Source: Haplodiscus bocki (lineage: Eukaryota). Taken from it: 64,000 bases of DNA. Both the position numbers and the translations under genes were made by a program. The stretch lies in assembly GCA_965655095.1 (NCBI GenBank), contig OZ296652.1, positions 42,966,001 to 43,030,000 of the forward strand. Direction: 5' to 3'. Below are positions 18,701-64,000 of the stretch, piece after piece. The notes beneath the pieces were generated by a model. It searched no databases. It saw only the letters and a program-made list of their open reading frames with translations, and was not told where the DNA came from. Position 1 is the stretch's first letter; the number at the start of each line of letters is the position of its first letter.

Positions 18701-18734
18701 TTCCACCACTGATTTCTATACTTTATGCAAAATA

Positions 18735-26930: not shown

Positions 26931-27575
26931 AATCCTTTTGAAATAATATTTTGAATGTCGACAGTGTGACAGGTTCTTGTTCATTTTCGTATTTTAAAAT
27001 GTGCAAATTCTTAAGCATTGGGCTGGACAATGGCGTGGAAAATCTCCAAACAGAGGCGAAACGAAACTTTGCAACAGATTCTGACTTGTCAGACGGGATC
27101 AAATATTTACATCTCGAATCAAATATCCTGATAGAAATTTGAAACCTTGGTCGGATACATGATGCATTCTTTTAGAAATACTCCTCCTGCTATCAATCAA
27201 AAGTTTGTTGTCAAGTTCCTGTCACAGTGTCTCATAATCAATCTTTTGATCTCTCAATCATATATTTTCAGTTCCAGAATATCTGAAGATTGATTCCAAG
27301 TAGTAAAACAATTCAGAAGACTCGACTTTTCTTTTTTAACACTTTACCATACACCATAACGATATATAGTATGCTTTTTATAGGTTTCTTTTGGTATGTT
27401 TTATTTTGTTTCAGAAATACGTGAAGGAAGCGAGCGCGCCTTAGAGTGCGAGATTAATCCTTTAGAATTGGCTGCAAGTCATACTAAAAAAAGTTTTCCG
27501 TCTCTTCAAACATTGATATGATAGCTCCGTTTTTTTGTTTTCCAGGTATTCGAATGGGAATAGTGTTGAAACGAG

Positions 27576-29066
27576 ATGAGTCATGAATTCGAAGGCGACA
27601 ATGCTGCTTCTGGTAGTAGCGAAACTAGCAATCAGTTGATTCTGTTCAGAACAGACTACACTCCTCGTGAATCGGAACAGGAGACAGACACGCTGTCCAA
27701 GAGCAGATCTGGGCGAGTCTACAAAAGACGCTGGTATGTCCTATTCGTGTACTGTTCAGTGGGTTTTGCCAACTACATTGCTTGGAACACGTGGGATCCA
27801 ATCCAAAAAAGTGCCAAATACGTGTACGGGTGGAACAACGGAATTCTATCTCTGCTCGCAGACTGGGGATTATTCACGTTGATCATCTTTCCACCCTTCT
27901 ACGCGGCTCTGTTGAAACGACATGGGCTGAGAACGGCAGAGTTGACCACTATTGGGTTAATGTTTATTGGCGCTTTCCTCAGAATCATTAACTGGGGTTT
28001 CGGTCTTTGTAACACTATCATGCTCAACATTAGCCAGTTTTCAACGGGAGCCGGGGGTATTATTCCAATGGCAGGTGCTAGTTTATTGTCCTTGACATGG
28101 TTCCCAGAAAACGAAAGGAGATTTGCTACGTCATTTGCAGCCGGAAGTCAACAGATTGGTTTGGCGCTCTCGTTCTTGATTGGTCCGTTGATAGTTGGTG
28201 AACCTCCATCTTCAAATTCACATGAAAATTCTTCTGCCACGAAAGCAAAACTGGCCCATGAAATTGACGTTTACATGTGGATACAGTTTGCGTTTGTAGC
28301 GGCTCTGGCAACGTGCGTTCTAGTTTACTTTCCCTCACGCCCACCGTCGCCACCTACTATGTTGTCAGTGAGTCAGCGGCACTATATGGGAGTGTCCTTG
28401 AAATTGATAGTTCGAGAACTAAAGTTTTGGGCGCTTGCCTTCTCGTACGGTCTATTCAGTGGAATATTCAACTCATATCTCGCAGTTATCGCTATTGATT
28501 TAGCTTCCAACTCTTCTCTGAATTTTTCTCAATACTCCTGCGGTTGGCTTGGTTTTTCAACTACCATAATTGGCGCCATGTCTGGTATGCTAGTAGCCGC
28601 CATTGCTGACTGTTTACGAGCCAGAAACCCCATCCGGAGAATGTTACTAGCACTACTAGTAATCGGGTTCATCGCATTCGGAACTTTTTTACTCATAGCA
28701 AAAGAATACGTATTCATAGAACCACGACTCGCACGCGACTTCTGTATTTTCCTCACCGTTATAACCACTGGCTGTGCATCTGCAAGCACAGTGCCCTTAA
28801 TATTCGAAATAGCAGCTGACATCTTGTACCCTATACCTGAAGAAGTGGTTGGCTCTATGTTGGTCTTGGTGCAGAATTCTTGTGGCCTGGTCTTGCTCAT
28901 GATATTTTTAATACCTGGAACTGGCATAGAGTGGCTAGACTACGCAGTATTAGGTGGCATAGTGGCGACGTTTCCAATGGTGTATCTCCTTGATGATACC
29001 AATGTTAGAGCCATGGCTTCTCAATTCAACCCTAATGGTGCTTTCAGCTATGATGTACTAGCTTAA
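27576..29066 (+). CDS. SLC49A4: MFS transporter, SLC49 family (SLC49A4/DIRC2-like), intronless CDS, 496 aa
   Basis: About 12 hydrophobic segments and family motifs VYKRRW, WNTWDPI, LSLTWFPENERRFATS, FPSRPPSPPT and FEIAADILYPIPE. An acceptor TTTCCAG at ~27545 suggests 5' UTR exons. Confidence 0.9.
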   Translation: MSHEFEGDNAASGSSETSNQLILFRTDYTPRESEQETDTLSKSRSGRVYKRRWYVLFVYCSVGFANYIAWNTWDPIQKSAKYVYGWNNGILSLLADWGLFTLIIFPPFYAALLKRHGLRTAELTTIGLMFIGAFLRIINWGFGLCNTIMLNISQFSTGAGGIIPMAGASLLSLTWFPENERRFATSFAAGSQQIGLALSFLIGPLIVGEPPSSNSHENSSATKAKLAHEIDVYMWIQFAFVAALATCVLVYFPSRPPSPPTMLSVSQRHYMGVSLKLIVRELKFWALAFSYGLFSGIFNSYLAVIAIDLASNSSLNFSQYSCGWLGFSTTIIGAMSGMLVAAIADCLRARNPIRRMLLALLVIGFIAFGTFLLIAKEYVFIEPRLARDFCIFLTVITTGCASASTVPLIFEIAADILYPIPEEVVGSMLVLVQNSCGLVLLMIFLIPGTGIEWLDYAVLGGIVATFPMVYLLDDTNVRAMASQFNPNGAFSYDVLA

Positions 29067-34300: not shown

Positions 34301-34797
34301 TGTTGTGAACCGGGGGTTTATGCTAGAATCTTTATTTGCGCAAAAGTCGCAAAAACAGTTTTTATAAAGAATACAATTCTTTAAAAAAGGTCTTTTACAA
34401 ATACTGGAAAGTTCTGAGTCTTGAGCTTTTCTGACTTAGCTGTTTTTATAAATGAATCTTAGTGAAATTTCAAGACTCTTTGTCAAGTGAATTTCAGGGG
34501 TGTTTTAAGAGAGCAAAAGAAAAGAAGGACTATTGCCTCCTTTACGTTCCGCATAGGATCGTTGTTAATGTTAGCTTTTTTTCTTTCTATCTCAGGACAG
34601 TTGTTCTGTCACGCGGCTTTTCTTTATTGGCTGAGCGTTAAAAGAATCGTCTTTTGCACTTTTTTGCGAGCGCGCTGCTATTTGCTTAGACTAAATGCTC
34701 GGATAATTCCTCTTCGGATAATAAATCTCTGAGTCAATTTCCCTGGATAATCACCTTTAGGAAAATGAACTAATTTAAACGGTACCGCATTGCTACA
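34301..34797 (-). mobile_element. Solo LTR (497 bp) of the adjacent Gypsy family
   Basis: TG...CA termini (TGTTGTGAAC...GCATTGCTACA) with a 4-bp TSD, TTGT (34297-34300 / 34798-34801). Its last ~55 bp match the LTR stub at 35046-35103. Confidence 0.8.
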
Positions 34798-35344
34798 TTG
34801 TTTGAAATAGCAACTCGAATGGTTTGCTGAGGAATTCATTGCAACTCTTCCGTAATGATTCCCTGGTCGAGTCGATTTGTCCAGATTTGTGCTTTTGAGA
34901 GTCAACGTCACACTTCCTGGTTTCCGATAAAAGTTCTTTTTCGAAAATGTTTCTTTTAGTTCTTTGAAAACACTTCCGAAAAATTGATCGCACTTTTGGC
35001 CTTTAAAGTGTCAATTTTGGATTTTGAACATTTAAAAGTGACAGTTCCGTGGATAATCTCCTTTAGGAAAATGAACTTAATTAAACGCTAGCGCATTGCT
35101 ACAACTCACCCCAGTTGACCAGAGAAGACTGCATTAGTCGCAATACTCGTCAACTAATAATAGTATAAATAACCAAAGTATAAATCATCAAATGATAATA
35201 TAAGGTGTACAATTTAATGTTTAAATGTTTAAAAGATTAATGTTAGGTAAAGTTTGAAAAGATACAAAATGTTTGTAAGCCTGAAAAGTTTTCGTTTTGA
35301 GAAGGTTTTTATGTGTTAAAGGTTCGATTGTTTCTTCTTGAACT

Positions 35345-36966
35345 TCAATTATTTTCTCCAGTGGGAACATTCTTTGCGTCAATGAGCCACCAGAGACGTG
35401 CATATTTTTGTGTCCAGTTCGGGTCCTGTTCGAAATTGTAGGCTGTGGGATAATAAACTGTAGAAAATCGAGTCTTGCTATTTCCTCGTTTAACATTGAA
35501 AATTGAATATTTTTTGGATTTTTCAATGTCCCATTTTTCAGCATATGTGTGGAGTGCATGTAAACATCTTTCTAGTTTTTCATATTGTTGGCCGTCAACG
35601 GCTTGGATTAGCTGGATGGCTTCGGCTCCTTGAATGTCTATCTCCACTCTCATCATTTGCAACTGTTTAACGAGCTTCTCTATTTCGGTCTGCTCTTTGA
35701 TCTGAGTGGCTTTCTTGTTAAAGGACTCTTTTATGAGCAAGATCATACTCGTCAAGTTTTTTCTTCAAGAGGATATTGCTCGTATTGGACTCTGACATTT
35801 CATATTGAAATGACTCCGCTTTGGAGGTCGCTTCATCTAATTGTTGTTTGACTTCTTTGTTCTCTTCGAACAAATCAGCAGTCACTCTCTCAGAAAGCTG
35901 TAGTTTAGATTCAGCGCGATCAGCGTTACTTTTAGCATTCGCTCGTGATCTATTAGCGCAATTGAGAAAAACTTTCAAATTACTGAGTTCAATTAACCGG
36001 TTTTTTTGTTGCTCGAATTCAGCAAAAGCCAACTCAGTTTCCCAAAGGGACTTTGTCAGTTGGGTATTTGCTTGGAAATTGGAACTCTGGCTCTGTCTGT
36101 GTTGTGGTTGAAACAGTTTTGGTAGTAGAGGACTTCATATTAGTTTCAGAGCACAAGGAAGTGTTGCAGGAGGAAGCTATTGTTTTCTGCGAATTGCAGT
36201 CAGAGGAAAATATTGGATTTGGATCGTTCAAGAAGGCTGTTACGACTCCAAATTGGGCTTTAATCTGAGCATTCAAGTTGTGGTTAGAAATTACATATTT
36301 TCTTTCATCGTGAAGTCGATCTTTCAAACGCCATTGGTTCAGATCTTTGGGTAATTTCACAACAAGATTTGAACTAAAGTTTGCGGGAATGTTGATAGAA
36401 CATTTCAGCTTCTTGTTAAAAATCTTGATGTCTCCAAGGCTTCTGGGAAGATACGTGTCATTATGATCCCTAAGGACACCATATTTTGGGAATCTTATAA
36501 ACTGCGCGTTGTCATTGTCAACATTCATTTCTCTCTCCTTTTGTATTTCTAATCTCTCTCTGAGATTGGGAAATGATTGTTTATCAGTAGGTAAACCATC
36601 ATCCAATCGTGAAGTTATACGAGAGGGTCCTTTTCTATCATCGAGTCTCGTTGACGAACGATGAGAAGGATTCAACTCATTGCTAAGTGTCATTAACTTT
36701 TTAGCACTTATGTGGTCTACTGATTCAGTGGCAACACGTTTGTTGGCATTTTGGTATACGGAGACTACCTTTTTATTAATTCGTCTTGCTTTTCTGGGTT
36801 TGAAGATAATATTCGGGGGTCTCAAATCATTGGGGATGAATCCTTCAGGATTAGTCAATGGAGTCAGACATAATGAATGTTCTAAAATTCGATTAAAAGA
36901 AGTGAATAAACGAAAAGTGAAGCAGATAATTTGCACAGAGTTTGGACGACTAAAATCATTTGACAA
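35345..36966 (-). pseudogene. Accessory ORF region between env and 3' LTR (basic N-part, coiled-coil C-part), probably one frameshifted ORF
   Basis: Abutting or overlapping same-strand ORFs 36034..36966 (310 aa), 35718..36032 and 35345..35755. The last two are E/K/Q/L heptad-rich. Confidence 0.6.
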
Positions 36967-36971
36967 AGCGA

Positions 36972-39404
36972 CTAAGTACGTGTTTTTTTTGTTTTCGGTT
37001 TTTTTCTTTTCTGATTTTTCGAGTTTTTTGTAAATTTATACAAAAATTTAAGTTGGGGTAATGGAGCATTTCCATTACTGTTCGAAGCATTTCCGTTAAT
37101 AGGAGCATTTCCGTTAGTACTTTTTTTCAAAAAGGTATTTGAAATAGTGGGAGCATTTCTGTGAGTACTAACAATTGAATTCAGGGGAGTATTTCCTGAG
37201 GTATGAAACATGTCAGGATCATGTCCTTGTGATTCAGTTATGTTTGAACTAATCGGAATTGGATTGTTCACAAGATGTACATGAGGGTAAAACGAAGTTG
37301 GATTTTTTTCGTACATTGGTGCAGCTCAGGTTTCATTACCTGTAACGTTCTTCATACGGAGATTACCATTCTTTTTGTTTTCATCAGTTTCGTACATTGG
37401 AGTCTGTAGTGAGAAAACGAACAAGTGAAATGTTGCACCTGGCATAGTTCTGACAAACCAAAAGTGGCACCAGAAACTTTTTCAAGTCCTCGGAGGACAA
37501 TAAAAAGAACGTCAATAAAAAACTTTACCGAGTGGAAGCAAGCAAAAAAGTTTCCGAAACATTTAATATAATATTCCAAAAGACCAAAAGTTTCTTTAAA
37601 CTTGTCGACAAAAAAGGAGGGCGTAAATAAATGATGCATCAAAAGTCTATCATCTAGACTCAAAAGGCGTTCTAAGTTTCCAGGATCGGAAATTCGAACT
37701 GTGTTGCCCTTTGTCAAAATGGTCCTTGTAAGCATCTTTAGGACAGTGTCGGAATTGGGAACATGGATTATATTATCCGAAAAGTTTTTCATTGGCTGGG
37801 GAGTATACATTCCAGAACGCCTAGTATCGAAGGTGGGAAACTGAGTAAAATGTCCTAGCTCAGTTGGCTCGAACAACAAAGGTTTATTAAAAGGCACGGG
37901 ATCAGGTAAAAGTTGATACCAGGAATTGTCATTCTCGATATCAAGTTGAAACACAATAGTGTAAACAACCAAACAGGGTATCTCGGATGCGAAGTCATAA
38001 GTATGACGCTTGAGAGGATCTACAATATTAGTAGTCCGTTCAAACAAGATCGGAATTCGGTCGTAACATTTATCAAGCACTCTTAGCGACAGAAATTTAG
38101 GACAACGATACAACGAAGCGACACTTCCATCGGTGTTCAGAAACATTGACCTATTTCCAGTTAGCATGTAACCGGCAAGCCTGGTGTTTTGCATTGCTAA
38201 CATTAACATTTTTAACATTTGAGTACGCTCAAGTTCGCATTGATTTTGCAAGAGCGTCATTTCTGAAAGTCTTATTTGCTTGGTGTTGAAGTACAATATA
38301 TACTCCAATTTTGTTCCCAAGTGCAAATCATAATCAATTTCATCCGCGCCGACAGAACGCCAAGGTTGTGCGCCAACCTCTCTGCTGGTTACTTCGCTAA
38401 AACTTAAAGACGTATAAGAAACCTGGTTAGTGTTGTCAATCGAAAACTGATGTGCGTTAGATGAATATTTGTTCGTATTCTCCACCTGGCATTGCGAAAC
38501 CTCCTTGGTAATTCACACTTTCAAAATTTGTCTTGTACAATCTTTCAGTGTTTTCCACATAGCTCATAGCTATGAGGGAAAACTTTAAGTTTTATGTTCA
38601 TTCCTTTTCCAGTGTCGTTGAATTCACTGAGGAAGAAAAATTGATTCTGATCCGTTGTCAAAGGATAGTGTAACATTTTTGCATCTTGTGTGAGAATTTT
38701 TGTCATCACACAGTTTTCTGGAGTGTCCCAGGTATATGCAAATGAGTCAAGAGTAGTGGTCGCTCAACCACCCTCAACGAAAAGACATGGAAGTTTCTTC
38801 CTGTCCCCATTGGGAACCTCTTTGTTCCCAAAATTATAGGTCAAATTGACTCGTTGCGTTAACGTTCCAAAACTGTAGTGTTTGATTTGGCCGCTAGTAC
38901 ATTCAATTGTTGAGCTAACGGCTTGACCATCATTGAATTTTGCTTGTGTCTTTACATCAAACTCAATGGGAACATCAAAATTTTCAACGAATGATGTGAT
39001 TTTGATTTCCTTCTTGGATTTCGATGCAAGTCTACACATTTCAGGTGTGACTATCATGTCATAAGTGATGCTATTTTGATCATGCACGTATGACGTATGA
39101 GAGAACCTACCACAATTGTATCGGAAAACATGGACCTTGACGGAACACATCGTTGCTGACAGGTCGGTGCGAAAATTTTTCTGGTAGAAAGTAATAGTAG
39201 CCGTCGCGTTGTACAAGTTTTAGGTGAAATCTTGCATTCAGCTACTTTGTTTAATGAGTATATTCGATTGTCATGCATTTTGGTACAATCGTAATGAGAA
39301 ACAAATAACTCTTGCGACACATTGTCTATGTTATCAACTTTCAGGGTATTAGTTAGGTAATTAAAAAGGAAATATTTAAGGACTAGTAAGATATTATGCG
39401 TCAT
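36972..39404 (-). pseudogene. env: Envelope glycoprotein, chuvirus-G-like, frameshifted
   Basis: Hydrophobic N-terminus, then SHYDC...SLNKVAEC, CSVKVHVFRYNCGRFSHTS, LGTKLEYI, QCELERTQML...LAGYML, LYRC...CYDRIPI...EIPC...WYQL.P and SGMYT, then a TM segment and cytoplasmic tail. This is the motif series of chuvirus-type glycoproteins. Confidence 0.8.
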
Positions 39405-39479
39405 TGCTTATTTGAGAAAACTGAAAAAACACTAGATGTTGTGATTGTACAAAAACACCAGATGTTGTTGTTGTACAGA

Positions 39480-41191
39480 AACACCAGATGTTGTGGTTAA
39501 ATGGATGAAGTTATAGAAAATACAAATGCGTTGAAGAGCATAGGATTTGTTTGGAATGACTTGGCGAGTTTTTTGAGTTTTTGTGTTTTTAGTAGAGAAC
39601 GTGGTAGAAAAGTAATTAGAATGAAAGATGATTGAAAATTTAGAAGTATGGTTTTCCGCATCACTCGCGAGGAATATTTCGTATAGTTCCTGTGTTTCTT
39701 GAGCGTGGAGTAGTGCCAGTACTAGTTGACGGAAGGTTAGTAGGATTAGTACTAGAAATGCGAGGCAAAGGGCTAGGTGTAGTCGGTTGACTTGTGTTGA
39801 CAGGTGATTGCGATTGAAATGAAAGAGGAGTTTGTGGAGATGATTGCGGAATACCAGAATCAGGTGAACTCGCTAAGAGACTCGGCGTCGAATGGCAACT
39901 GGTGTCTTTAACAGGCGAATTAAATCTCGTGTCCATTCGTGACGGTTCACATGTGTCGGGAAAGTTCGGTGAATAGTCATTCAAATGTTTTCGCTCAACA
40001 TTTGAGTCCATTGGCTGATTCAATTGAGAGAGTCGGTTCTAGCATATTCGTCATAGAAATGCTCGGTTTTATCATCGTTGTTAGGCTTCTCGTAATTGGA
40101 TAATAAGTTCGGTAACTCATTGTCACGAGGAAAATATTCAACGAGATGATTGCGATGGACGACTTGGGTCCTCGTTGGATCTTCACCGAGAGCAATCTCG
40201 TATCTAACCTTCGTAATTAGTTTACTCACTTTTGGCAAATATGGAAAAGGTTTGTCTAAATAGGGTGATAGTTTAACACATTTGCCGGGGAAGACCGTTA
40301 AATTTAGCCTGGGGTTTCTCTTATGTACAATTTCACCAAATTTTGCTGAAAAGTACTTTCTAAGGATGTTCATTCGTGCCTCGTCGGATTCCGAAACATA
40401 AACCATGTGCTCAATTTCTACGTCAGACACAGATTGAATCAACTTTCCCTTTCATGGGCATGGCATGTCTATTTGCAGCCAAAAGTGATTTTTCAAGAGA
40501 GATGACAACTAATGGTTGAATTTTTTAAATCTCTGTGAATGTGTCACAGTTGATAATGGAGCACGTTTCGCCAGTATCATTAAGAAACTCAGTGCTCAGG
40601 CCATTATTTTTATTTGTGTCTCCGACGGCGTATTGGAATGGTTCAATAAAAAAATGTTGACCGGGCGTTGCCGCTCCAGATGTGTGAGGAGTGTCATTTG
40701 GATCCTCACTTTCTTGGTTCGTAGTCTTGATTAGTTTAAAGGATTGCATGACTGCAATGTGTCATACAACGAATTAACCTTGTCAGCTGTTGCTTCGAAG
40801 CGAAGAGTTCCAGAGTAACTGTTACTTCTGCTGCGGTTGCGGTTTGCAACGTATGGCCTGTCGCTACGACCTCTCTGGGTGTTAGAGCGATCGTTCGAGT
40901 TTGATCTGTAAATATTTGGCTATTTTTGTGCGTTTGGGTAATTTTGAGAATAAGCTTCTTTCGGTTGAGGAGGCGCTTTTTCATTGTTTTTTTGTCATAG
41001 ACCAACAGAATTACACTGTGTGGCCGGATTTTTTGCCATGGGTGCAAAATCGAGTAAAGTCTTCTTTCTTTTTGGGGCCTTTTGGATCATAAGTCGCATT
41101 GATCTGATGATTCTTGACCATATTGCTGATTTCATTCAAAGTTTTCTCAATGTTTGTGAAGTGTGAGTCAGTGGAGTCGGCTGCGGTGCGA
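39480..41191 (-). repeat. Internal chimeric duplication: gag-end/protease copy (40232-41191, like 45760-46712) fused to integrase C-terminus copy (39480-40231, like 41192-41935)
   Basis: Near-duplicate translated ORFs: 40525 vs 45912, 40736 vs 46317, 39661/40020 vs 41348. ORF 40020..40442 reads across the PR-to-IN junction. Confidence 0.9.
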
Positions 41192-41347: not shown

Positions 41348-44300
41348 TTAGAAGTATGGTTTTCCGTACCACTCGCGAGGAATATTTCGTAAAGTTTCTG
41401 CGTTTCTTGAGCGTTGAGTAGTGCCAGTACTAGTTGACGGAAGGTTAGTAGGATTAGTACTAGAAAAGCGAGGCAAAGGGCTAGGTGTAGTCGGTTGACT
41501 GGTGTTGACAGGTGATTGCGATTGAAATGAAAGAGGAGTTTGTGGAGATGATTGCGGAATACCAGAATCAGGTGAACTCGCTAAGAGCCTCGGCGTCGAA
41601 TGGCAACTGTTGTCTTTAACAGGAGATTTAATAGTCGTGTCCATTTCTGACGATCCACAGGTGTCAGGAAAGATCGGTAAATAATCATTCAAATGTCGTT
41701 GTTCAACAAATGAGTCCTTTGGCTGATTCAATTGAGAGAATTGGTATTTTGCATACTCGTTATAGAAATGCTTAATTTTATCGTCCTTGAAAAGCTTGTC
41801 GTAATTGAATAATAAGTTCGGTAACTCATCGTCACGAGGAAAATATTCACCGAGATGATTCCGATGGACGACTTGGGTCCTCGTTGGATCTGCGCCGAGG
41901 GCAATTTCGTAATTAGATTTCGTATTTACTTTAGTCACAATGTACAGTCCACTTCGGAGTTTGCACAATTTTTGGGATTTTCCGAACGTAACCTTATTGT
42001 TTTCAAAAGGACTTTTTGTCCAACTCGTAGTGGTTTAGCAAGTTTGTACTTGTTTCTGTACTTTAGAGAACGATGATTGGCTTCTCGGACTTTCCTATAT
42101 GCCTTGCGATATATATTCTTGAATTGAGTTTCGCGGTTAAGTAAATCCATCGAGCTTTTCGAGGATTATAAATTGTTCATGCATGAATGACTTGTTTCTT
42201 TGTTCACATGGGTATGATTTGGTAAAGTTTGACAAAATTCGGACTGATATAAATCATTGTCGTCTCGAAATAGTCCCAGTTTGAGAGAAAATGGTATTTG
42301 AGGTTTGAAGCCTAAGACAACTTCATAAGGAGTTGTTCCAGTGCTAGAGTTTAATGAAATATTGTGTGCAAAAGCAAATTGACAAGCCAGTTTGGCCCAA
42401 TTAATTCCAGCTTCAGTTAGGTAGCAACGAAATTATCTACTCAAATGTTTATTCTGTATTTCAACTTTCCCATTGGTCCAAGGTGACCGTTTCGTTCTGG
42501 GAGCATGAGTTATTCCAAATTCCAGAACGAAAGTAGAGAAATCAGTACTCACAAAGGAATTTCCACGATCATAAACAAGCTTTTGAGGAATCCCAAAAGA
42601 AGGTCTGAGAGTAGACATGCATTCAGTGGTATGAGTAGCATCAGTTGATTTATCTGGATACACTTGAATGAAGCGCGAAAAAGCGTCTATTACAACCAAA
42701 CAATTGTGTTTGCCGTCACTCATTGGGTTCAGAGGTCCTTTGTGGTCAATGTGTACAGTGTGGAATAGGTAAGGTACTTCTTCTCTCTTTTTTTCAATGG
42801 GAGCAGTGTTTTGATCCTTTCGGATTTGTTTTTTCTTTCTGCAGGTTAGGCAACTCTTCGTTAGATTTCGTACCCATTTATACATTCCAGGCCAATAGAA
42901 AAATCCTTTCAGAGATAAAAGAGTTTTTTCAGAACCGGGATGTCCGGATAAACGATGATCATGTGCAGCATTGAACGCTTCAATGAAATGATTGCGTGGT
43001 AAGCAAATCTCTTTAGGTGAATGGTTGCTTTTGCGACAGATTAATTGTGTTTCTTTGTCAACAAAAAATTATTCAAATTGATTTGCGTAGCCAAGTAGGC
43101 CTTTGTATTGTCGTGATTTCACGTCTTTTGTGGGCAATTTGCTTTTTGATATCCACGAACGGACAGTTTTCAAGATGGAATCATTTTCTTGATTCACTAG
43201 GATATTATCACAATCGAATGTGTCAGTTGTGAATTTCAGTGTCCTTTTTGGTTCGTGTACAAAAAAATGGATGGTGTTGTATTAAGATTTGTTTTCTGAC
43301 TTTCTTCAATCTCTTGATTCAGCGCAATGTCCTCGTCGGATGCTTCGTTGTCACTAAATTCACTATCAGACTCTTTTTCTGGGTAATAATTTTCATGAAC
43401 TTCGGCTTCCTCAACCATTGGTGGAGCTTGCGATTTTCGTCTATTGTTAATGTTTTTGACTTCTCGGAAGGAATCAGAAACATAAAAAAAGCTCTGGCTG
43501 ACTTCGAGTCAAAAATTTTACAAATCTTCTCAGTACAATCATAATTAAGGTGAAGTGCCCTTGTTTCACCCAGATGTGTGCAAACAATGGGATAAAAATC
43601 GTCATTTCCATCATCGGCAGAGCTGTTGTGATCAATGAGATATTGAACTTCATGTCCGCTCTGGTTGAAGAATCTGATATCCTTGGGATCTTCTTTATGA
43701 GCCAATTAGTGTCCGTTCAGGTCCTTCAAGGAAACATTTCTACTCAACAGATCAGGAAAAGCTAAGTTTTTTCCAGGAGTCCAATTGATTTGGAGATAAG
43801 TGAACTCAGTAATGATCACTTGGTATCGGAAGAGTCGGTGAGACAATCTTCTTTTTCGTGCCCACAGGTACAGCAATGGCGTGTGATCACAAAAGATTTT
43901 GATCGGATGTGGTTAACCGATTATGAAATGCTCATAAGTTTGTAGAGCGGATATGATTCCACAAAGTTCACCGTGCAAAGTTGACATCTTTTGTTCATCT
44001 TTTGTGAATACTCGAGAAATGAAAGAAACTATACGTATTCCACTTAGGAACTCTACCAGGTTGGATCCAGTACCAATGCTGGATGAGTCAACATGAATAT
44101 GGAACGGGTCTTTAGAATTGGGTGCAGCTAGAATAGTTTTTTTTCTTATTCTGTCTTTGATGTTCTGAAATAGTTTTTCATGCTCTTTTCTTCAGTCGAA
44201 TTGAACATCATCTCTCAAGAGTTCATAGAAAGGTTTTGAATCCACCTGTAAATATTCCATGAATGTACTGTAGAAACCTAAACTTCCTAAGATGTGCAAT

Positions 44301-46274
44301 ACATCTCTCTTGTTTTCAGGGCTCTTCAGATTTTTTAGATCTTGGAACTTTTTGGCAACTGGTTGAATTCCTTTGTCGGAAACAATGTGTCAAAGTAATT
44401 GAACTTTTCTCAAAAAGAGTTTGGTTTTGTTTGGGGCAGCTTTCAGTCCTGATGATCACAAATATTTGAAATAAGATTCTAATTTTTCCACTTTTCCGCC
44501 TCGGTTTTTGCTTGAAAAATCACATCATCAATATATGTGATAGCTTGCTTCATGGCAATCAGTTCAGCAAAATGGATTGTCTTGATTCGACTAAAGAAAT
44601 TTGGACGACCCCATAGGTCGTAAAATCCTCGTTCGAACATGTATTGTTTTCCACCAACAACTAAACTAGTTATATTCTTGGTGTCTTCCGAAAGAGGTAC
44701 CTGCTTGTAGGCTGAAGCCAAGTCACTTCTGGTGTAATATTTTCCATCAAGTCTAGTCAGTAACATTTGTACTGGTTCTAGAGGCCATGAGTAGTTTGAC
44801 AAATCAGTTTTGGAGTTGAGATATCGAACGTCAATCACCAGTTTGACAGTTTCTCCTTTGGGTAGAGTGATGATAGGATTGGTGAATAACGAACCCATTT
44901 GCACATCACTTCCCATTTCACGAATGGTTCCTGCTGGTTGCAGTTCATTTGGAGGATTTCTAGTGCATCCCTGTAATGCAGAGGAACCTTGAAAGGTCGT
45001 TGCTTCCGTAATTCGGCATCTTTTTTCAATTTGACATGGATTTCTTGCGTGAGTTTTTTTCAACATGCTAAATAAATTTAGAGAAAATGTCATTGTTTTC
45101 AACTAAAGTTCTTAAGAGATGTCGTAGCTCACTATCAGTTATGTCAGATTCAGCGAAATCGAAATTTTTCAAAAATATTCGTTCAGAAGGACTGAACTCA
45201 GGAAAGAATTCTTCACTGAGTTGTTTTCGTTTGGTATCGCACGCCAATTTGGGCAGTCGAGGTTGCAGGGATTTTACCTCTTTGGAAAAATCCGTAGCTA
45301 ATTTTTTTGCGACACAGTCATTTCGGATAGCCTTTTTCGGGAGTCGATTTCAGTTGAAGATTGAAGTAAGGTTCAGTTGAACAAACTTGCATGTTATTGC
45401 TCAATCCTGAATCGAATGCCTTGACGAAGTCAATGAAAGCAACGTTGTCGATCACGCTCATCGTTTGAGTCGCTTCTTGTGTGCATTCAAGGAGAGCATA
45501 ACCAACTATTCCCTTTTTAATAGGGATACTATTGGGATTTGGGTTATTCAACATTAGAGGATATTTTGATTCATGATGTGAACAATAGACATGATAAGTA
45601 TAAATTCCAGTGTCGAGAACATTTTTATGTAAGCGGAAACTTGTTCCTTTTCTGAACAAATCATTGTCTTCGTCTGTAGGTATAAGTGTCAAAACTCGCG
45701 TTGAGTAAGGTGCAATCGTTATGTCTTGTGGTAATTCTACTGAGTTAACTTGTGAATAGTGCGGAAAAGGTTTATCTAAATAAGGCGATAGTTTATTGCC
45801 GGTGAAGACCGTTAAAATTACCATTGGGTTTCTCGGATTAGTAAATTCACCAAATTTTGCTAAAAAGTTCATTCCAAGATTGTTCTTTGGTGCCTCGGGC
45901 GATTCAGAAACCTAAACCATGTGCCCAATAACACCGGTATATTCTACGTCAAACAAAGATTGAATCACTACTTTCCCTTTCATGGGCATGGCATGTCCAT
46001 TTGCAGCCGAAGATGAATTTTCAAGAGGCATTACAATTAATGGTTGAATTTTTTCAATCTCTGCGAATGTATCACAGTTGATAATGGAGCACGTTGCGCC
46101 AGTATCAATAAGAAACTGAATGCTAATGCCATTATTTTCATTTGTGTCTCCGACTGCGTATTGGAATAATTCAATAAAATGTTGGCCGGGCATTCCAGCT
46201 CCAGATGTGTGAGGAGTATCATTTGGATCCTCACTTTCTTGGTTCGGAGACTTGATTAGTTTGAAGGATTGCAT
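41348..46274 (-). pseudogene. pol: Gypsy pol: protease, dUTPase-like spacer, RT, RNase H, integrase
   Basis: PR: FLIDTGATCSII. dUTPase-like: ITIAPYS...NPNPNSIPIKKG. RT: KLVIDVRYLN, DLASAYKQV, YIDD. RNase H: HVDSS...ELCGII...CDH. IN: CLTC...VHIDHKGP...IDAFSRF...YDRG...NGKVE. Multiple stops and frameshifts. Confidence 0.93.
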
Positions 46275-47040
46275 AACTGCAATGTGTCATACGAATTAAC
46301 CTTGTTAGCTCTTGCTTCAAGCGAACAGTTCCAGAGTAACTGTTACTTCTGCTACGTTTGCGGTTTGCAACGTATGGGCTGTTGCTACGTCCTCTTTGGG
46401 CGTTAGAGCGGTCGTTCGAGTTTGATCTGTAAATATTTGGCTATTTTTGTCCGTTTGGGTAATTTTGAGAATAAGCTTCTTTCGGTTGAGGAGGCGCTTT
46501 TTCATTGTTTTTTGTCATAGACCAACAGAATTACACTGTGTGGACGGATTTTTTGCCATGGGTGCAAAATCGAGTAAAGTCTTCTTTCTTTTTGGGGCCT
46601 TTTGGATCATAAGTCGCATTGATCTGATGATTCTTAACCATATTGCTGATTTCATTCAAAATTTTCTCAATGTTTGTGAAGCGTGAGTCAGTGGAGTCGG
46701 CTGAGGTGCGAGAACTTGATTGTTGAAAACCAGAGATTTCAACGCTAATTACGAGACGTGTCTTTGTTTATTATTAGCGTCTGTAGCGTGTCCCTTGTTT
46801 CATTGGGGTCTCCGATTAGTGCCTGGTGGGCTTTCTGTTTAAGTCCAGGGGTGTTAAACCACGTATAAAGAAGTCCTTATACCTTCCAATTCGTTGATTT
46901 TCACATGCTGTTTGTGCATTTGCATCAGCGTGGGGAGGCGTTGGCCATCCTTTGTCAACTAATGTTTTTATTCTGTGTATATATTTTTTGATGTTCTCGT
47001 CGGGCTGTCTTTTCAAGTTTTCAGCTTCAATAATAGTGAA
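46260..47040 (-). pseudogene. gag: Gypsy gag C-terminal half (capsid C-domain and CCHC knuckle remnant)
   Basis: QPDENIKKYIHRIKTLVDKGWP...DFFIRGLTP. Degenerate knuckle CTHGKKS.HTV*FC at ~46525-46570, copied at ~41005-41050. Confidence 0.8.
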
Positions 47041-48249
47041 TATTAGCTTTGAGAGTCAACGTTACACTTCCTGGTTTCGGTTAAAAGTTCTTTTTCGAAA
47101 AAAAAATGTTTCTTTTAGTTCTTTTTAAACACTACGAATTCCGAGAATTGATCCGAAGAATTGATCGTACTTTTGGCCTTGAAAGTGTCAATTTTGGATT
47201 TTGAACATTTGAAAATGAAAGTTGGATTGATATTGGAAGATTTTCTTTGTGCGGCATCAGTTATGACGACTAGTTTTCGAAATCTTTAGTTTTTTATATT
47301 GCTCAGTTAACGTTTATGGAAAGTTCCGGCTGCGATTATGCCTATATCGTCGTTTTGCCCTTCTTGGATTTCTCTCTCTTGAGTTTTGAAGATCTCGATA
47401 AAGTGAGAGTTGTCCAGATTTACTTTTTTTGAATTTTTTCATCAAGTGAAAGGTCGTTCTCTTAGGTCCACGATGGTAGGATTGCTCTGTGTTTGGTTAA
47501 TTTTGGGATGCAGTGTTCAGTCAAGTCTTCATTCTACGCCTACCACAGCGTTGTCAAATTCAAAATTGCTGTAGCTGTAGGGTTTGAAGGGATGACGTTA
47601 TTCACATGTTCCCAATCTGCTTTTTTTGCGAATGTCGTAAGGTGGCCAGAGTTCTCTATATTGTAGTTAATCATTTGATCGGGGTTTTTGAGGGAAACAA
47701 TGTCTTGCTGCTGCTGCTGCGATTGGTTTCCGAAGTTTTGGTCGATGAGTATTTGCAGCATTGCATTTTGGATGTCGTTTGGAGAACTCTTATTTGTCCA
47801 GTCTGTTTTTGAGTTGCTTGAGTCCCCGCAAAGGAAATTATATTGGTAGTTTGAATTGTTGATAGGGTTGGAAACATTTCCGAAAGTATTCAATTCCAAC
47901 TTGTTTCCAAGATTGGGGCCCGTCGGATTGTCGATTTTAGAGACAGCTGTAGAGTTTCGAGGCAGGCAGTTTTTACAGACTGACCAAGACATCTTCTCCG
48001 AAATCTGCAAGGTAGACTTGTTCATGGTCGAATTCCTCTGACTCCAATCAGTACGTCGCTTTGTCTGGTGTTACAGAATGTTTGACAAAGAAAAAAGCAA
48101 ATTTACTAGTGCCTTTACACTTCAGGCCGCTCCATGATTAGAAGTTCTCCGGGAGCTACCCTTGAAAAGCAAATAACTAACAAGATCTAAGGTGGGGGTT
48201 ACATTGAGGCTGCTGCAGTGTTGTTAAATCTCGGAGAGCTACTTGTGTA

Positions 48250-50200: not shown

Positions 50201-52180
50201 ACTTTACTGAGTTTTGGATAAGAAGAAACTAAATATTACATAAATTGCGGTTAAGCTGTCAGCCTCTATCAAGTCGAAGCTCTGCTAGAAAAAGCTAACA
50301 CTGATTTGTTCTCTCTAGAAGCAGCCAAGAAATACATCATATAGTACATTTAATCTTCTGAGAAGCTTTGTAACATTTGTTTCTTTTTCAAGTTGATGTT
50401 TTGTAAGCTGATTTTTCTAATGTTGATATCGTTTACAGTTTTTTGTTGCTTCAATTTCCTTCATGATCACTGAAGAACAAATGGTTATCCAGAAATTGGA
50501 AACAGTTCAAACAACAAAAATACTATCGGGAGATTTAATGTAAGTTTATACTTCAGTAAATATTTGCTGTAGATTTGTTCAAATTGAATTGATAATTTCA
50601 CAGCTGCTCCGCTGGTTAGTCTGCAGAAACTAGCCCATCAAAAATGGCTTGCCTCACTGTCTGGGATTATCCTGATTCAGACGCCTATTTTGTGCAATTT
50701 CTTTTCTCCTAAATACTCTACTTTTTGTGAACTGACTAGTTTATTACTTTTTTCTTTCCCTCATTTGTCCGCATAAGTCCTTGGTAGTGGAATTCACGCC
50801 ACAATTTATCTGCTTGTCGGAGCAAGGCGCGTAAACAAATAGATTAGAGTTTGCTTCCTGAAACTTCCATACTCACTACTTGAAACAACTCGCACGCCTT
50901 CAGCCATATTGATTGAGACAACATGAAGATGGATTGGTAATAAACCGCTGCAAGCTAAACTGAAAAAACTGAACTAATACTCTTTCTTCCTTTCTCCTAC
51001 GCTCGCTCGACAATATTATCTTCGTTGTGCTTCAGAAATTTTATATCAAACTCAGCTTTCCCTAAAAAACAATGCAAAATGTATTTGCGTGTCCTTCGCG
51101 GAACCAGAATCATTGAGGCATTTACCGATTCTTTTTGAGAAAATAACTTTCTCCACCAATATTTTTCGTAGTGAAAGGTCATTCAACCGAATCGTAAAAA
51201 CGTTATTTCAATATTTTTTCTCCGAAAACGTCCGATTTCTCGAAAACAATCGAGCCCCATGGATTTTTTGTGCCTCACGGGCGGGGTTGAATTGGTTTCT
51301 AACTTAGTTTTCGTTTCCATCGTCCAGTCGACAAAAATGAAGAATGTCTTTGTTTGCTGTCAAAGGAAGAGTGGAATTGAGAAACGGCCTCTACCAACAA
51401 TTTCAACCAAATGCAGAAATATTCGAGAAGCTCGAAATCACTGAAAGGTCCCCCGTATGCAAGTTTTTCGTCTGTATTAGTATTTTTCAAACCAAAAGAT
51501 GTTGAAAATCTTTTTGTTGAGTGATTGTTTTGATGAGACCCAAAAGAAAGCATCAAATTCTCTCCCATCTAAGTATATTGTGACTCACCGTCGATACAGA
51601 GTTGGGCCGATCCTGGTTTGTTGGAATGGGAGGTGCAGGGGGAAAGTCAAACTCTAGGAAGCAACTGGTAACCGCAGTTTAACTGCCTCGTCTCAGATAT
51701 TCATTTTTTTTTCAACTTAATTTTCATAAGACAGTATGTTAATGATCTTTCACAAATTGAATTAGTTGGTTTTAAAAAGTTGTTTGTTGTCAAAATGGTT
51801 GGTCGTGGAAGAAGGGGCCAGCCAGTATTACTGCGCAGAAATTATTTGTTCAAAGCTGAAATTTGAATTTTAAACCGATGATGACTTGTAGTACCAATTT
51901 TTTCAACACGATTTTTTTAATGCAGTATGCTCAAACAACGCTTTCGATTCAGTTACCAGTCGAAAGCGTATACAAGAGATGTTTCGGGTAAATAGGTTTG
52001 AATTTTCAGATCGGGACAGTCAACAACAAACGGTGGTGGCAATGTAGAGATTCAGATCAAACTGAAGATTTCTGTGGAGATAGCAGAGATTGGTTAGCAA
52101 AACAGATTTTTAGGATGAGGCACAGAAGGAATTGAATATTAAATTGTATTTGTTTTTATAAAATTGGTTTCAAATTGTAT

Positions 52181-53778
52181 TGTGACGTGTGTGGTGTGGT
52201 GTTTTCATATTCTTTTTCTGCTCGAGTGGCTTGCTTTTATTGTATTGAATGGTGGTGGCTGAATTTTATTCTTTCTTAACTATACGTCTTAAATAATCCA
52301 CTCTATGGTGTTTGGCAGAACCGTAAGACGTTCAGTTCACAACCATGCAAATCTTCCGTACTGCAGAGCTTCCAGGTTCTACTTGGTTCGGGTCAATATG
52401 CTACGCTGGTACCTTACCGTCACTTAGCCCACCGCACGGTATAGAGTGAATTTGGTTTGGAATACTATCAACTCTATGCAAACGAGTTGTTTCTTAATTC
52501 TAAATTTTATAATCTCGATTAGTGGTGGTGGTGGTTCTGACTTTCTATCTTCTCAAATTTTAACAAGCTCTGAACAAATTTCATCTTTCTTTAATTTTCT
52601 TTCGAATGCGTGTTTCAGGTTCTCGTCACGTAAATGGTTTTATTAGTAGTAAGTCTGGGATTACTCTACTACTATTGAGTTGAAAAAGTAGTTTAACTAC
52701 TTTGGGATTACTAAAAATTTGATCTGTTTAGAGCTTGCTATGATAAAAGTGAAAGGAATGAGATTATGAAGTTGATTGAATTGATTTTTCGTTAAGCTTT
52801 GACAAAATTGTAGTTTACAATGAATGAAATCTAATATATCTCAAAGAACAGAACTCACGACATTATGGTTTGAATGTTGGTGTGGTTGATCGATGGTTGG
52901 AGGTCGTCTATGCAGTCTTCGTGGGGCAGTCTTTGGATATTTGTGATTTGATCGTAGGATTTGTTCAAGAGAGATTCGAAAATTTATGAAATTGAAAAGA
53001 ATACAAAATTTAGCAAGAAAAGTTGAACGTCGAACGTTCAATAAAATTTTTGAAGACGTCTAACGTCAAAAGAGTTTTTCAAAATTGCAAAAGTCAAAAG
53101 GAACGAGCAGCTGAATTTTAAAATTGTTAAGTGGGTCTCTAAAGGCAGAGTTTTGCGAGTCTGCCTTTTATAGTTTTTGTCATGCTCATGTGTGACCAGT
53201 AATATTTTGCTGGTCACTGTCTGGTGCATGATCAGCCTTTCATGCTTCAAGGTTTTACTATTTTTGGGGTATCTGTCAAGGAATCATCCCCCAAAAGTTG
53301 CTATTATTATTTCAACTGTTCTAAGTTTGAAGCATTGACGAAATTTTGTTTCTTCGCTTCAAGAAAATAATTCTTGATCGAAAGCAGTTGAGAGTTACTA
53401 TTTCTATAAGTAACTAAAATTTGATGGCTACTGAATTTAAGCATCTGATGACATTCGTTGTTGAGTTGGCGGCCAATTTTGCTGACGTACATTGATTTGA
53501 ATTTTGGCGGTCGTCTCCACAACAGAGGCTGTTTCGTCAGGAGAATAAATTTAGATAGTCTTCTGGTGTGGTGAGATTGTGCCATCAATAGCGACGTGAT
53601 CAAATATTTTATATGAAGCACCGGATAAGTGAGTTCTTTAATTATAAAAAGCATCGATTGAGTGGTTAAAATATGCGCGTTTAAGATTCAAGCTAAGTCA
53701 TGTTTAAGTTTAACGTTGTTTCAATTCTTCATTCTTTTCAGCATTCTTTCATATATTATGACTTTTGTCATTGTCATA
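52181..53778 (-). repeat. 3' LTR (1598 bp)
   Basis: Termini TGTGAC...GTCATA. ORFs inside it translate identically to those in 55289-56886. Confidence 0.95.
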
Positions 53779-53792
53779 ATGCCTTCCTTTTT
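53779..53792 (-). promoter_or_regulatory. Polypurine tract
   Basis: AAAAAGGAAGGCAT immediately precedes the 3' LTR on minus. Confidence 0.75.
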
Positions 53793-53811
53793 GTAGTTTG
53801 TGTCCCACAAA

Positions 53812-54156
53812 CTAGTGTTGTTGAATATGAAAGTCGCCCAAACAGTACGGTTGGCCTTTGGTGTACGCGTCCACCGCAGAAGGTCCACAACATTTGAGAA
53901 TAGCTTGAGCGAGAGTGTCATCGGTAGCAACAGGTGGTGGATCAGTCTGCGTGGATTGATTGGCCATGCGGGGCGCACTAATGAAGAGTTGTGATGGTGC
54001 GCGGAGAAAACTTCGGTACGTTGTATGATTTGTTCGTTTAAGGACGACCGGGCCAGGTGGAGAGGTGATCTTGAGGACCCGGTATTGGTTGCAATCAAGG
54101 AGGTGAACCACATCACCTACGCGAACGTTGTGAGTTCGCCCATCACAAGTTGTCAA
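53812..54156 (-). CDS. Second internal ORF, unknown function (possible small SH3/KOW-like barrel)
   Basis: 114-aa ORF with VRVGDVVHLLDCNQYRVLKIT. It has no early ATG, but the frame is open further upstream and acceptor-like TTTTTTTAG and TTCAATTCAG precede it. Confidence 0.4.
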   Translation of the reverse strand: MTTCDGRTHNVRVGDVVHLLDCNQYRVLKITSPPGPVVLKRTNHTTYRSFLRAPSQLFISAPRMANQSTQTDPPPVATDDTLAQAILKCCGPSAVDAYTKGQPYCLGDFHIQQH

Positions 54157-54375
54157 GGGAGCAAAAGGAAGACTAAAAAAATCAAAGGGAGACCCACAAC
54201 GGTCCCGCAGGGAGGAAGCTGCTAAGCTTGCAAAAAGAGTTCGCAGATGAACTTCAGTGAGGAAGCTGCTAAGCTTACAAAAAGGGAGTTCACTAAGAAC
54301 TACTGAATTGAAAAATGTAAAAGGTACAAAACAAGCGAATTAAGAACAGACGTGTTAGAAAGCGAGTATAAACGG

Positions 54376-54732
54376 TTATTCTTCAGTTTGTAGATGTCTA
54401 ATATTTTGTTGGGGGCGTCTTCGGGGTGAAGGACGGCGCTGGGCTGACTGGCTGGTTGGGGTGGCTTGGGCAAGAGTACTAGGATGGATACGGGGTGCTT
54501 CTAATCGAAAATAGAGGTGGGGGTGCTGGCAAACGGGACACCTCTCGTACCCACGGGAAAGGAGAAAATTTAAGCAAGGGGGACAAGTATAATGCGGGAT
54601 ATGGTGATGGATGTGTAACGTAATGATCTTATGTACGGGGAAAGTTTTTAAACAAACGGGGCAGGAGCGATAAAGGGGGCCGAGAGGACAGCGGGGATGA
54701 ATGGGTGTATCGTCATATAGCGGGGCATTCAT
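54376..54732 (-). CDS. RING-finger-like protein (118 aa from ATG 54732)
   Basis: CPVC-x-LHIHHHIPHYTCPPC-x-CPVCQHP gives RING spacing with His at ligand 3. Followed by a basic tail (RRPSPRRRP). Confidence 0.75.
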   Translation of the reverse strand: MNAPLYDDTPIHPRCPLGPLYRSCPVCLKTFPVHKIITLHIHHHIPHYTCPPCLNFLLSRGYERCPVCQHPHLYFRLEAPRIHPSTLAQATPTSQSAQRRPSPRRRPQQNIRHLQTEE

Positions 54733-54868
54733 GGAGTCGGATGGGTCTTGCTGTCGGCGTGAGAGGAGTGAGAGAAACGGAACCGCCGCCGCCTGATCCG
54801 GATCCGGGTCCGCCGCCACCACCGCTTCGTGGTGATCCGCTTCTTGATGGGGGGGTTGACGACGCCAT
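54713..54868 (-). CDS. 51-aa Gly/Ser/Pro-rich leader ORF overlapping the RING start
   Basis: AAAAATGGCG start; translation MASSTPPSRSGSPRSGGGGGPGSGSGGGGSVSLTPLTPTARPIRLHECPAI*. It overlaps the RING ORF by 20 nt in another frame. Confidence 0.5.
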   Translation of the reverse strand: MASSTPPSRSGSPRSGGGGGPGSGSGGGGSVSLTPLTPTARPIRLHECPAI

Positions 54869-55098
54869 TTTTGAGCAAAAACGTTCTTAGATCTTATTGA
54901 GTTTTAACCGAACAAACACACTGTTTAGAGTTTAAAGTTTTAAAGAAAAGGAAAAACAAAAAAACTGTTAAGAAAACACACTTAAAGTTGTGATAAACAT
55001 GCGTTGTCTTAAAATTTTGTTCAATCAACTTCTTTTTCTTTTATTAGCCAGCTCTTCTCAAGAGCGAAACAAGTAATTTTAATTTTAAGTTGAGTTGA

Positions 55099-55162
55099 GA
55101 GCGACCGTTCGCGAAAACAACCGTTCGAGAAAGCAACCGTTCGAGAAAGAGCAACCGTTCGT
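55099..55162. repeat. Four ~16-bp tandem units (CAACCGTTCGAGAAAG) in the 5' leader of the LTR element
   Basis: Directly visible. Confidence 0.85.
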
Positions 55163-55266
55163 GGTTAAAGTTTTATCACTTACCTTGTACTGGCAACTGA
55201 AAACTTTAAGATTTAAGTTTTACGTTTTACAAAAAAAACCCAAAAACAAAAGAAGGAGAAAGTCAG

Positions 55267-55284
55267 ATCCCACCCTTGTCACCA
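55267..55284 (-). promoter_or_regulatory. Primer binding site, tRNA-Leu-like
   Basis: Minus-strand TGGTGACAAGGGTGGGAT, 4 nt inside the 5' LTR boundary, is complementary to a tRNA 3' end ...ATCCCACCCTTGTCA-CCA. Confidence 0.85.
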
Positions 55285-55288
55285 TTTT

Positions 55289-56886
55289 TGTGACGTGTGT
55301 GGTGTGGTGTTTTCATATTCTTTTTCTGCTCGAGTGGCTTGCTTTTATTGTATTGAATGGTGGTGGCTGAATTTTATTCTTTCTTAACTATACGTCTTAA
55401 ATAATCCACTCTATGGTGTTTGGCAGAACCGTAAGACGTTCAGTTCACAACCATGCAAATCTTCCGTACTGCAGAGCTTCCAGGTTCTACTTGGTTCGGG
55501 TCAATATGCTACGCTGGTACCTTACCGTCACTTAGCCCACCGCACGGTATAGAGTGAATTTGGTTTGGAATACTATCAACTCTATGCAAACGAGTTGTTT
55601 CTTAATTCTAAATTTTATAATCTCGATTAGTGGTGGTGGTGGTTCTGACTTTCTATCTTCTCAAATTTTAACAAGCTCTGAACAAATTTCATCTTTCTTT
55701 AATTTTCTTTCGAATGCGTGTTTCAGGTTCTCGTCACGTAAATGGTTTTATTAGTAGTAAGTCTGGGATTACTCTACTACTATTGAGTTGAAAAAGTAGT
55801 TTAACTACTTTGGGATTACTAAAAATTTGATCTGTTTAGAGCTTGCTATGATAAAAGTGAAAGGAATGAGATTATGAAGTTGATTGAATTGATTTTTCGT
55901 TAAGCTTTGACAAAATTGTAGTTTACAATGAATGAAATCTAATATATCTCAAAGAACAGAACTCACGACATTATGGTTTGAATGTTGGTGTGGTTGATCG
56001 ATGGTTGGAGGTCGTCTATGCAGTCTTCGTGGGGCAGTCTTTGGATATTTGTGATTTGATCGTAGGATTTGTTCAAGAGAGATTCGAAAATTTATGAAAT
56101 TGAAAAGAATACAAAATTTAGCAAGAAAAGTTGAACGTCGAACGTTCAATAAAATTTTTGAAGACGTCTAACGTCAAAAGAGTTTTTCAAAATTGCAAAA
56201 GTCAAAAGGAACGAGCAGCTGAATTTTAAAATTGTTAAGTGGGTCTCTAAAGGCAGAGTTTTGCGAGTCTGCCTTTTATAGTTTTTGTCATGCTCATGTG
56301 TGACCAGTAATATTTTGCTGGTCACTGTCTGGTGCATGATCAGCCTTTCATGCTTCAAGGTTTTACTATTTTTGGGGTATCTGTCAAGGAATCATCCCCC
56401 AAAAGTTGCTATTATTATTTCAACTGTTCTAAGTTTGAAGCATTGACGAAATTTTGTTTCTTCGCTTCAAGAAAATAATTCTTGATCGAAAGCAGTTGAG
56501 AGTTACTATTTCTATAAGTAACTAAAATTTGATGGCTACTGAATTTAAGCATCTGATGACATTCGTTGTTGAGTTGGCGGCCAATTTTGCTGACGTACAT
56601 TGATTTGAATTTTGGCGGTCGTCTCCACAACAGAGGCTGTTTCGTCAGGAGAATAAATTTAGATAGTCTTCTGGTGTGGTGAGATTGTGCCATCAATAGC
56701 GACGTGATCAAATATTTTATATGAAGCACCGGATAAGTGAGTTCTTTAATTATAAAAAGCATCGATTGAGTGGTTAAAATATGCGCGTTTAAGATTCAAG
56801 CTAAGTCATGTTTAAGTTTAACGTTGTTTCAATTCTTCATTCTTTTCAGCATTCTTTCATATATTATGACTTTTGTCATTGTCATA
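55289..56886 (-). repeat. 5' LTR (1598 bp)
   Basis: Copy of 52181-53778. Has TATAAAAG on minus at 56273-56280 and AATAAA signals downstream. Confidence 0.95.
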
Positions 56887-63736: not shown

Positions 63737-64000
63737 GTTAGTCCGTTATTTCATGCAAGTTCTAGAGTTGTATTTGAATTGTTGAATTCTTCGTTAATGT
63801 CTCAATCTTAGTTATTGAAAAAAATAAATGATAAGTAAAGTTAAATGTAACCTGGAACTGTTCGGCGAAGATTGAGTTGAGTAATTTGTGAAAAATAATT
63901 CAGTTGCTCTACCTCTTCAAATATACCATGAAGTTTTGTTACATTCGACCGTTGAAAGTCAAACGGCGGATTTCTAATTTTTTTTGCGCGCTCAGAAATT

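Follow-up and report, generated by a model that had tools for sequence, protein, structure and literature searches.

A decayed Ty3/Gypsy element and its young relatives

The window analysed here is the whole 64,000-nucleotide (nt) stretch at positions 42,966,001 to 43,030,000 of contig OZ296652.1 in the Haplodiscus bocki assembly GCA_965655095.1. It carries on its minus strand a dead copy of a long terminal repeat (LTR) element in which pol is followed by an envelope gene (env) and env by a fourth open reading frame (ORF4). A first reading of the bare sequence, hereafter the original prediction, had described positions 36972..39404 as a chuvirus-type glycoprotein serving as env of a Ty3/Gypsy element. 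The results below point with good probability to a recently amplified Ty3/Gypsy element of four ORFs, with an env predicted to be of the chuvirus or herpesvirus gB type and an accessory ORF4 that is likely spliced, of which the window holds a decayed copy. Its parts are listed from the 5' to the 3' end of the element in window coordinates.

47048..47223, minus strand: 5' LTR remnant (81% match over 176 nt to 35046-34894)
46270..47047, minus strand: broken gag remnant with the C-terminal part of the capsid and a single CCHC-type knuckle (translation)
41348..46286, minus strand: broken pol remnant with protease, beta-rich spacer, reverse transcriptase (RT), RNase H plus an integrase bearing an SH3-type tail (Pfam on window pieces and on natural copies)
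39427..41174, minus strand: internal duplication joining the gag end and protease to a second integrase tail (direct repeats; mapping to a young copy)
37048..39404, minus strand: env remnant in five pieces, a predicted class III fusogen of the gB/chuvirus type (Pfam, Foldseek, motif positions)
35345..36871, minus strand: ORF4 remnant in three pieces (tblastn 68-82%; ratio of non-synonymous to synonymous polymorphism, pN/pS; profile matches in distant families)
35104..35113, minus strand: short tract rich in purines that directly precedes the 3' LTR, likely the polypurine tract (the same sequence occupies this place in young copies)
34301..35103, minus strand: 3' LTR region, a variant LTR of ~300 nt and then a full TG...CA LTR (81% identity with the 530-nt LTR found in young copies)

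DNA identity between the window copy and a young one is 77-87%. The window copy lacks most of the 5' LTR, the primer-binding site (PBS), the 5' untranslated region and the first ~100 gag codons; the 5' LTR remnant abuts mid-gag directly and a young copy can be aligned only from 47028. The 1.7-kb internal duplication (41174-39427) is peculiar to this copy and separates the integrase from env, so that the claim of an env directly after integrase fails in the window; in young copies the gap between pol and env is about 275 nt. Likewise env does lie upstream of the polypurine tract on the same strand, as had been proposed, but is not adjacent to it, ORF4 (36871-35345) standing between the two. A sequence resembling ACAACATCTGGTG is repeated in 3-5 tandem copies in the pol-env gap (window 39430-39495; L021/L022) and matches the U5/PBS junction. 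A second, older copy of the element with ~1-kb LTRs that are 91% alike is found ~31 kb away.

At least 142 env matches were detected in the genome among 4,850 candidates searched with an env piece, and many of them have open frames of 840-848 codons. The counts of architecture given here rest on ten copies, selected because their env is unbroken. Young copies measure 12.5-12.8 kb and are arranged as LTR (~530 nt)-gag (366 aa)-pol (~1,650 aa)-env (796 aa from its ATG)-ORF4 (516 aa)-LTR. The search for intact copies with both LTRs and an open env that the original prediction had suggested was thus successful: LTR pairs were 99.4-100% identical in nine of the ten, all four ORFs were unbroken in four, and one copy was internally deleted with env and ORF4 retained. 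The LTRs end in TG...CA and target duplications, judged by eye, were of 4 bp in six of nine copies, the others showing one of 5 bp, one with a mismatch and one none. The PBS sequence, TGGTGCGACCAG, is the complement of the 3' end of tRNA-Met(CAU) as encoded in the genome. Nine matches to the PBS pattern comprised two tRNA-Met(CAU) genes, one gene with the same 3' end and a Thr anticodon, and six element-borne tRNA pieces; at the first three of these matches, where element-borne 3' pieces of tRNA-Met lie, no tRNA was called by ARAGORN. In insertions L086-L088, L125, L128 and L130 the PBS is accompanied by sequence from the 3' half of tRNA-Met, ~50 nt at most, which is likely to reflect primer read-through. 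The gag/pol overlap contains a T-TTA-AAC heptamer in a -1 arrangement, which we take to be a slippery site.

Linkage was scored on 20 of 150 integrase matches, picked in roughly even steps over rows 46-150 (row 60 replacing row 58). Env was present on the same strand in all 20 copies, supporting env as a fixed part of the family in agreement with the original prediction, and ORF4 was covered over at least 490 aa in 18 copies, with 196 aa in one and 19 aa in another. Element sequence was also present in four non-RNA contig sets, and an IMG/VR scan gave 47 pattern matches, none of which was confirmed.

The backbone was assigned from its domains. Pfam gave the pol order gag-asp_proteas, RVT_1, RT_RNaseH/RT_RNaseH_2, Integrase_H2C2, rve, Integrase_p58_C and SH3_Tf2-1, with Retrotrans_gag detected in an unbroken natural copy (E 7e-8), and the best PDB match of the RT is Ty3 RT (E 3.7e-38). 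The YIDD motif (near 44530 in the window) and the single CCHC-type knuckle on which a Gypsy-type pol had been postulated are both present. No Pao-specific domain (Peptidase_A17 etc.) was found by Pfam in gag or pol, while PF05380 (Pao family) occurs at 149 BEL loci of the genome; the RT-RNase H region of the element had no significant match to ten host BEL loci (best E 2.0), and no affinity of the RT to BEL/Pao was seen. These comparisons support Ty3/Gypsy, and speak against BEL/Pao, as the backbone. Protease and RT are separated by a spacer of about 110 aa that is conserved among three families. It had been called dUTPase-like, a reading that gained no support: the spacer showed no Pfam match at E<=1 and no PDB dUTPase match with a 4-sequence profile.

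The envelope gene and its origin

In the window env starts at the ATG at 39404 on the minus strand and its homologous stop is near 37050, position 36972 being run-on. The single ORF of the original prediction persists from that ATG as a remnant that now falls into five pieces; its frame shifts near 39220, 38550, 38470 and 37460, and in-frame stops occur as well. All the motifs named for it were recovered, spread over three frames: YDC (39293), EC (39239), RYNCGxFSH (39123), TKLEY (38314), CELER (38239), CYDRIP (38068), WY (37921) and SGMYT (37816). The remnant shares 90% DNA identity with a young copy, and Monjiviricetes_fusion (Pfam PF24664) was matched by its largest piece with an E value of 4.8e-21 and by a second piece at 5e-5, compared to 3.7e-41 for the unbroken protein. 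As to the signal peptide and transmembrane (TM) segment that had been described, the N-terminus has a short hydrophobic stretch, and hydropathy of the unbroken copies places a TM segment near aa 611-645.

The best Foldseek matches of the env model were chuvirus/xinmovirus G (E 3.5e-32); HSV gB was matched at E 3.2e-13 and gB chains took ranks 1-4 in a wide VIA search. The structural comparison thus went as the original prediction had expected, with chuvirus/xinmovirus G and gB, not baculovirus F, as best matches. A furin-type R-x-[KR]-R site is absent from env, which does not conform to a class I F-type protein, its fold matching class III proteins, and 14 ectodomain cysteines are conserved at 90% or more in an alignment of 61 sequences. 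Taken together these data support env as a class III fusogen of the chuvirus/gB type by its predicted fold. The label “chuvirus” is nevertheless too specific because structural identity to viral G is 12-19%, and the top match, a chuvirus (19%), is almost tied with xinmoviruses and other negative-strand viruses. With a shared-variant pN/pS of 0.08, and of 0.03 in the ectodomain, polymorphism among copies indicates that env is under purifying selection.

The pairing of a Gypsy element with a chuvirus-like env, for which novelty had been claimed, is already published, and the window element adds another host. In the accessible parts of Chary and Hayashi (eLife, PMC13524379), whose survey covers 1,512 elements, gB-type env is reported on Ty3/Gypsy elements of many invertebrate phyla, insects included, and baits from mosquito BEL chuvirus-like glycoproteins recovered 114 Gypsy elements; in the available sections of Dezordi et al. 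2023 (PMC10084718) Gypsy associations of such a glycoprotein are only fragmentary. The gB-type errantiviruses, as described in these parts of PMC13524379, share with the present element the gag-pol-env order, a Gypsy pol, LTRs with a tRNA PBS, a class III env like chuvirus G or herpes gB and many near-identical copies; here too env follows pol with a signal-peptide-like stretch, ectodomain and TM segment, and its predicted fold is of class III. The selected fourth ORF after env is in contrast a feature of our element, and the main text of PMC13524379, in its available portion, makes no mention of an accessory or extra ORF downstream of env, a coiled coil, TRAF, splicing or dUTPase. It is this conserved fourth gene that is new here. 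Anakin of mosquitoes (Dezordi et al. 2020, PMC7642597; PMC10084718) likewise bears the broad glycoprotein class on an LTR element but, from what is accessible of its description, has a BEL/Pao backbone instead of a Gypsy one.

The original prediction went further and proposed an independent capture of env, giving a separate lineage. Such an event, taken as a comparatively recent capture from a chuvirus, would fit with chuvirus G as the best structural match and with the close env homologues forming a compact group at 26-51% identity. In addition, no acoel or Xenacoelomorpha term occurs in the available text or supplements of PMC13524379, which suggests that some lineages were unsampled, although unreadable parts of the supplement may include the family or its post-env ORFs. 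On the other hand, identity to any viral G is confined to the low range given above across several virus families, and gB-type env is widespread on Gypsy elements, for which the accessible argument of PMC13524379 is ancient acquisition and not fresh capture. No such env was present in the fetched stretches of ten BEL/Pao loci of the genome, and hence no local donor was seen. We consider a recent independent capture to be unlikely.

ORF4, the gene between env and the 3' LTR

ORF4 spans ~1.5 kb in the window. Its 516-aa unbroken product consists of a basic disordered head (17 K+R versus 10 D+E in the N-terminus), a conserved domain (22 versus 17), a serine/threonine-rich linker with an IQT/TQT motif, a long coiled coil and a C-terminal domain; no TM or signal segment was found, and by eye the conserved domain is a helix with one or two small beta units. 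Among 27 unbroken copies out of 30, a sample taken from the top matches and thus biased to open frames, shared-variant pN/pS was 0.17 for ORF4 as a whole, with 0.11 in the domain, 0.12 in the coil, 0.15 in the C-terminus and 0.51 in the linker. These ratios indicate that ORF4 is under purifying selection, and it is very probably a functional gene of the element. Copies diverge faster in ORF4 (66-88%) than in env (73-97%).

A word-based search returned 115 ORF4 homologues at 59% identity or more. One homologue cluster (at 65%) is not encoded in the genome of the window, and proteins P0130, P0227 and P0041 come from elsewhere because the genome gave no high-identity match to them (best 49%, no match at E<=1e-200, and best 67%, respectively). 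The full profile search added divergent proteins, including P0362 with 30% identity over 424 aa. When a profile of aa 95-222 built from this family alone was run on 515 ORFs of 17 other loci, the highest-ranking ORFs were those that follow env in L055, in L054 (two copies) and in L056, with E values from 3.7e-7 to 0.011 and a best reversed control of 0.3; the envs of these families are 38-46% identical to the present one. A sister family in the same genome also has a post-env ORF; it escaped this profile but was detected by a broader leave-one-out profile in each of five copies (E 3e-8; reversed control 0.023). Of seven metagenome loci, L058 had no ORF4-domain match in its short downstream flank and L060 had a weak, different match, L057 and L059 being too short for the comparison. 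These profile matches place the ORF4 domain behind env in four distant families. Two tandem ORF4-domain genes follow env in a 13-kb related element from another source (L054:9651-12095), and protein P0494 combines the ORF4 domain with MATH.

Pfam searches with ORF4 gave weak coiled-coil matches and no known family, and in the ESM Atlas the whole protein had no match reaching 0.9 and the domain none that could be used. The AlphaFold model is confident for the coil only, with low confidence elsewhere, and a homodimer prediction in which the alignment was not used scored 0.05. A primase subunit was the best PDB profile match (E 0.15) and was dismissed as chance. Literature searches on post-env accessory ORFs of errantiviruses, which took in few subscription papers and not Repbase, gave no description of the domain.

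An AG lies just upstream of the ATGs of env and of ORF4 in 47 of 50 located copies each, following a pyrimidine tract, and the pyrimidine share before ORF4 is 0.74 versus 0.49 for the element. A pyrimidine tract and AG also precede both post-env ORFs of L054, and the post-env ORF of the sister family has no ATG and opens directly after a T-tract and AG. These patterns point to splicing of the env and ORF4 messages, and ORF4 is likely to be an accessory protein translated from a spliced message. Extra post-pol ORFs, some of them coiled-coil and typically produced from spliced messages, are known from Gypsy elements of bdelloid rotifers (ORF3s, PMC5408684) and from Drosophila MDG1 (sORF1/2, PMC11952523). 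According to the accessible accounts the extra ORF of those elements replaces env, whereas ORF4 comes in addition to a full env, downstream of it, and contains a conserved domain of its own.

From these features one can outline how the element may work. Gag-Pol would be made through a -1 frameshift and env and ORF4 would be translated from subgenomic spliced RNAs. Env trimers could then allow particles to enter other cells, for example of the germ line, while ORF4 could serve as an intracellular coiled-coil scaffold whose [TIV]QT motif binds the dynein light chain LC8, so that element complexes would be trafficked or stabilised. The LC8 reading was advanced because the linker motif fits the [D/S]KX[T/V/I]Q[T/V][D/E]-like LC8 motif (PMC3078936, consulted in part) and adjoins the coil; many LC8-motif-like peptides fail to bind, according to the available part of PMC6607443. 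Five of the nine relatives compared have the motif immediately ahead of the coil. Across the 115 homologues conservation reaches 96% at Q262 and 90% at T263, three neighbouring residues being conserved about equally. A trafficking scaffold that acts through LC8 is the mechanism we prefer, as a tentative prediction from sequence whose probability is well below even and similar to that of a nucleic-acid-binding regulator.

Two other roles were weighed against such a scaffold. ORF4 could suppress silencing or regulate by binding nucleic acid or chromatin, in the manner of Rev or Tas; in complex retroviruses, the spliced accessory genes at the 3' end frequently encode regulators. The basic N-terminus and basic conserved domain, the absence of a TM or signal segment and the small helix and beta arrangement of the domain would all suit this role; yet the domain matches no known binding fold, and the coil with its adjacent motif has been kept in several families. 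A regulator is a plausible possibility, short of an even chance. ORF4 could also be a passenger, either a captured host fragment or an open frame without a role in the life cycle, as its lack of a known family and its faster divergence might suggest. Against this stand the shared pN/pS of 0.11-0.19 outside the linker, the recurrence of both position and domain in families whose envs are so distant, and P0362 as a homologue from elsewhere. The selection signal largely refutes the passenger role, which we hold to be very improbable.

A sister family with a TRAF-C gene

The sister family, whose env is 39% identical, is present in at least 61 copies. Its elements are about 20 kb long, with LTRs of 2.1-2.5 kb that were found in pairs in four of five copies and are 97-100% identical. 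Inside the LTRs lies an ORF of ~500 aa with a coiled coil and a TRAF-C/MATH domain and no RING (L042:2719-4236; also L046, L048, L050), supported by Pfam (E 1.8e-17) and by PDB TRAF matches to 5e-14; at least 150 copies of it have no stops in the scored part. The interval between pol and env (L041:6859-9698) contains recurring ORFs of 155 aa in sense, ~211 aa in antisense and 127 + 117 aa in sense, for which Pfam gave no useful match. Residues 372-432 of pol (L043:1243-6780), between protease and RT, weakly match Macro with an E value of 8.7e-4, below the cut-off. A precedent for the TRAF gene is the planarian Burro (PMC6431247), described in the part available as Gypsy-like with env and accessory domains including MATH/TRAF-C. 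In Burro, however, gag, env and pol follow one another in a single frame of a ~5,000-aa polyprotein, whereas here env and the accessory genes are separate ORFs downstream of pol.

These families lead us to speculate that a complex invertebrate retrovirus lineage may exist, in which a class III fusogen is combined with an old and hitherto undescribed family of spliced post-env accessory genes carrying a new domain, an LC8-binding motif and a coil. Some members would have captured host-signalling modules, namely the coil and TRAF-C without RING, likely as a dominant-negative of innate immune signalling, and the Macro-like domain in pol, in parallel to the complex retroviruses of vertebrates. We put this forward as a possibility at less than even probability. 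Surveys of env-bearing Gypsy elements seek only gag, pol and env, so that a shared accessory gene after env would be overlooked. If ORF4 were expressed and functional, it would show that genomes of the “complex” kind, with genes for trafficking or immune modulation, arose in invertebrate retrovirus-like elements. The small unnamed domain, the testable LC8 motif and the high-copy TRAF-C gene offer concrete starting points.

Elsewhere in the window an intronless ORF for a major facilitator superfamily (MFS) transporter (PF07690) was found at 27570-29066, with an MFS paralogue near the window end (about 63670-63740) and beyond. The window also contains an array of ~120-nt tandem repeats at 18728-20127, an exact duplication with a spacing of 3.1 kb at 52180-55587 and a 30-nt tandem repeat at 507-636.
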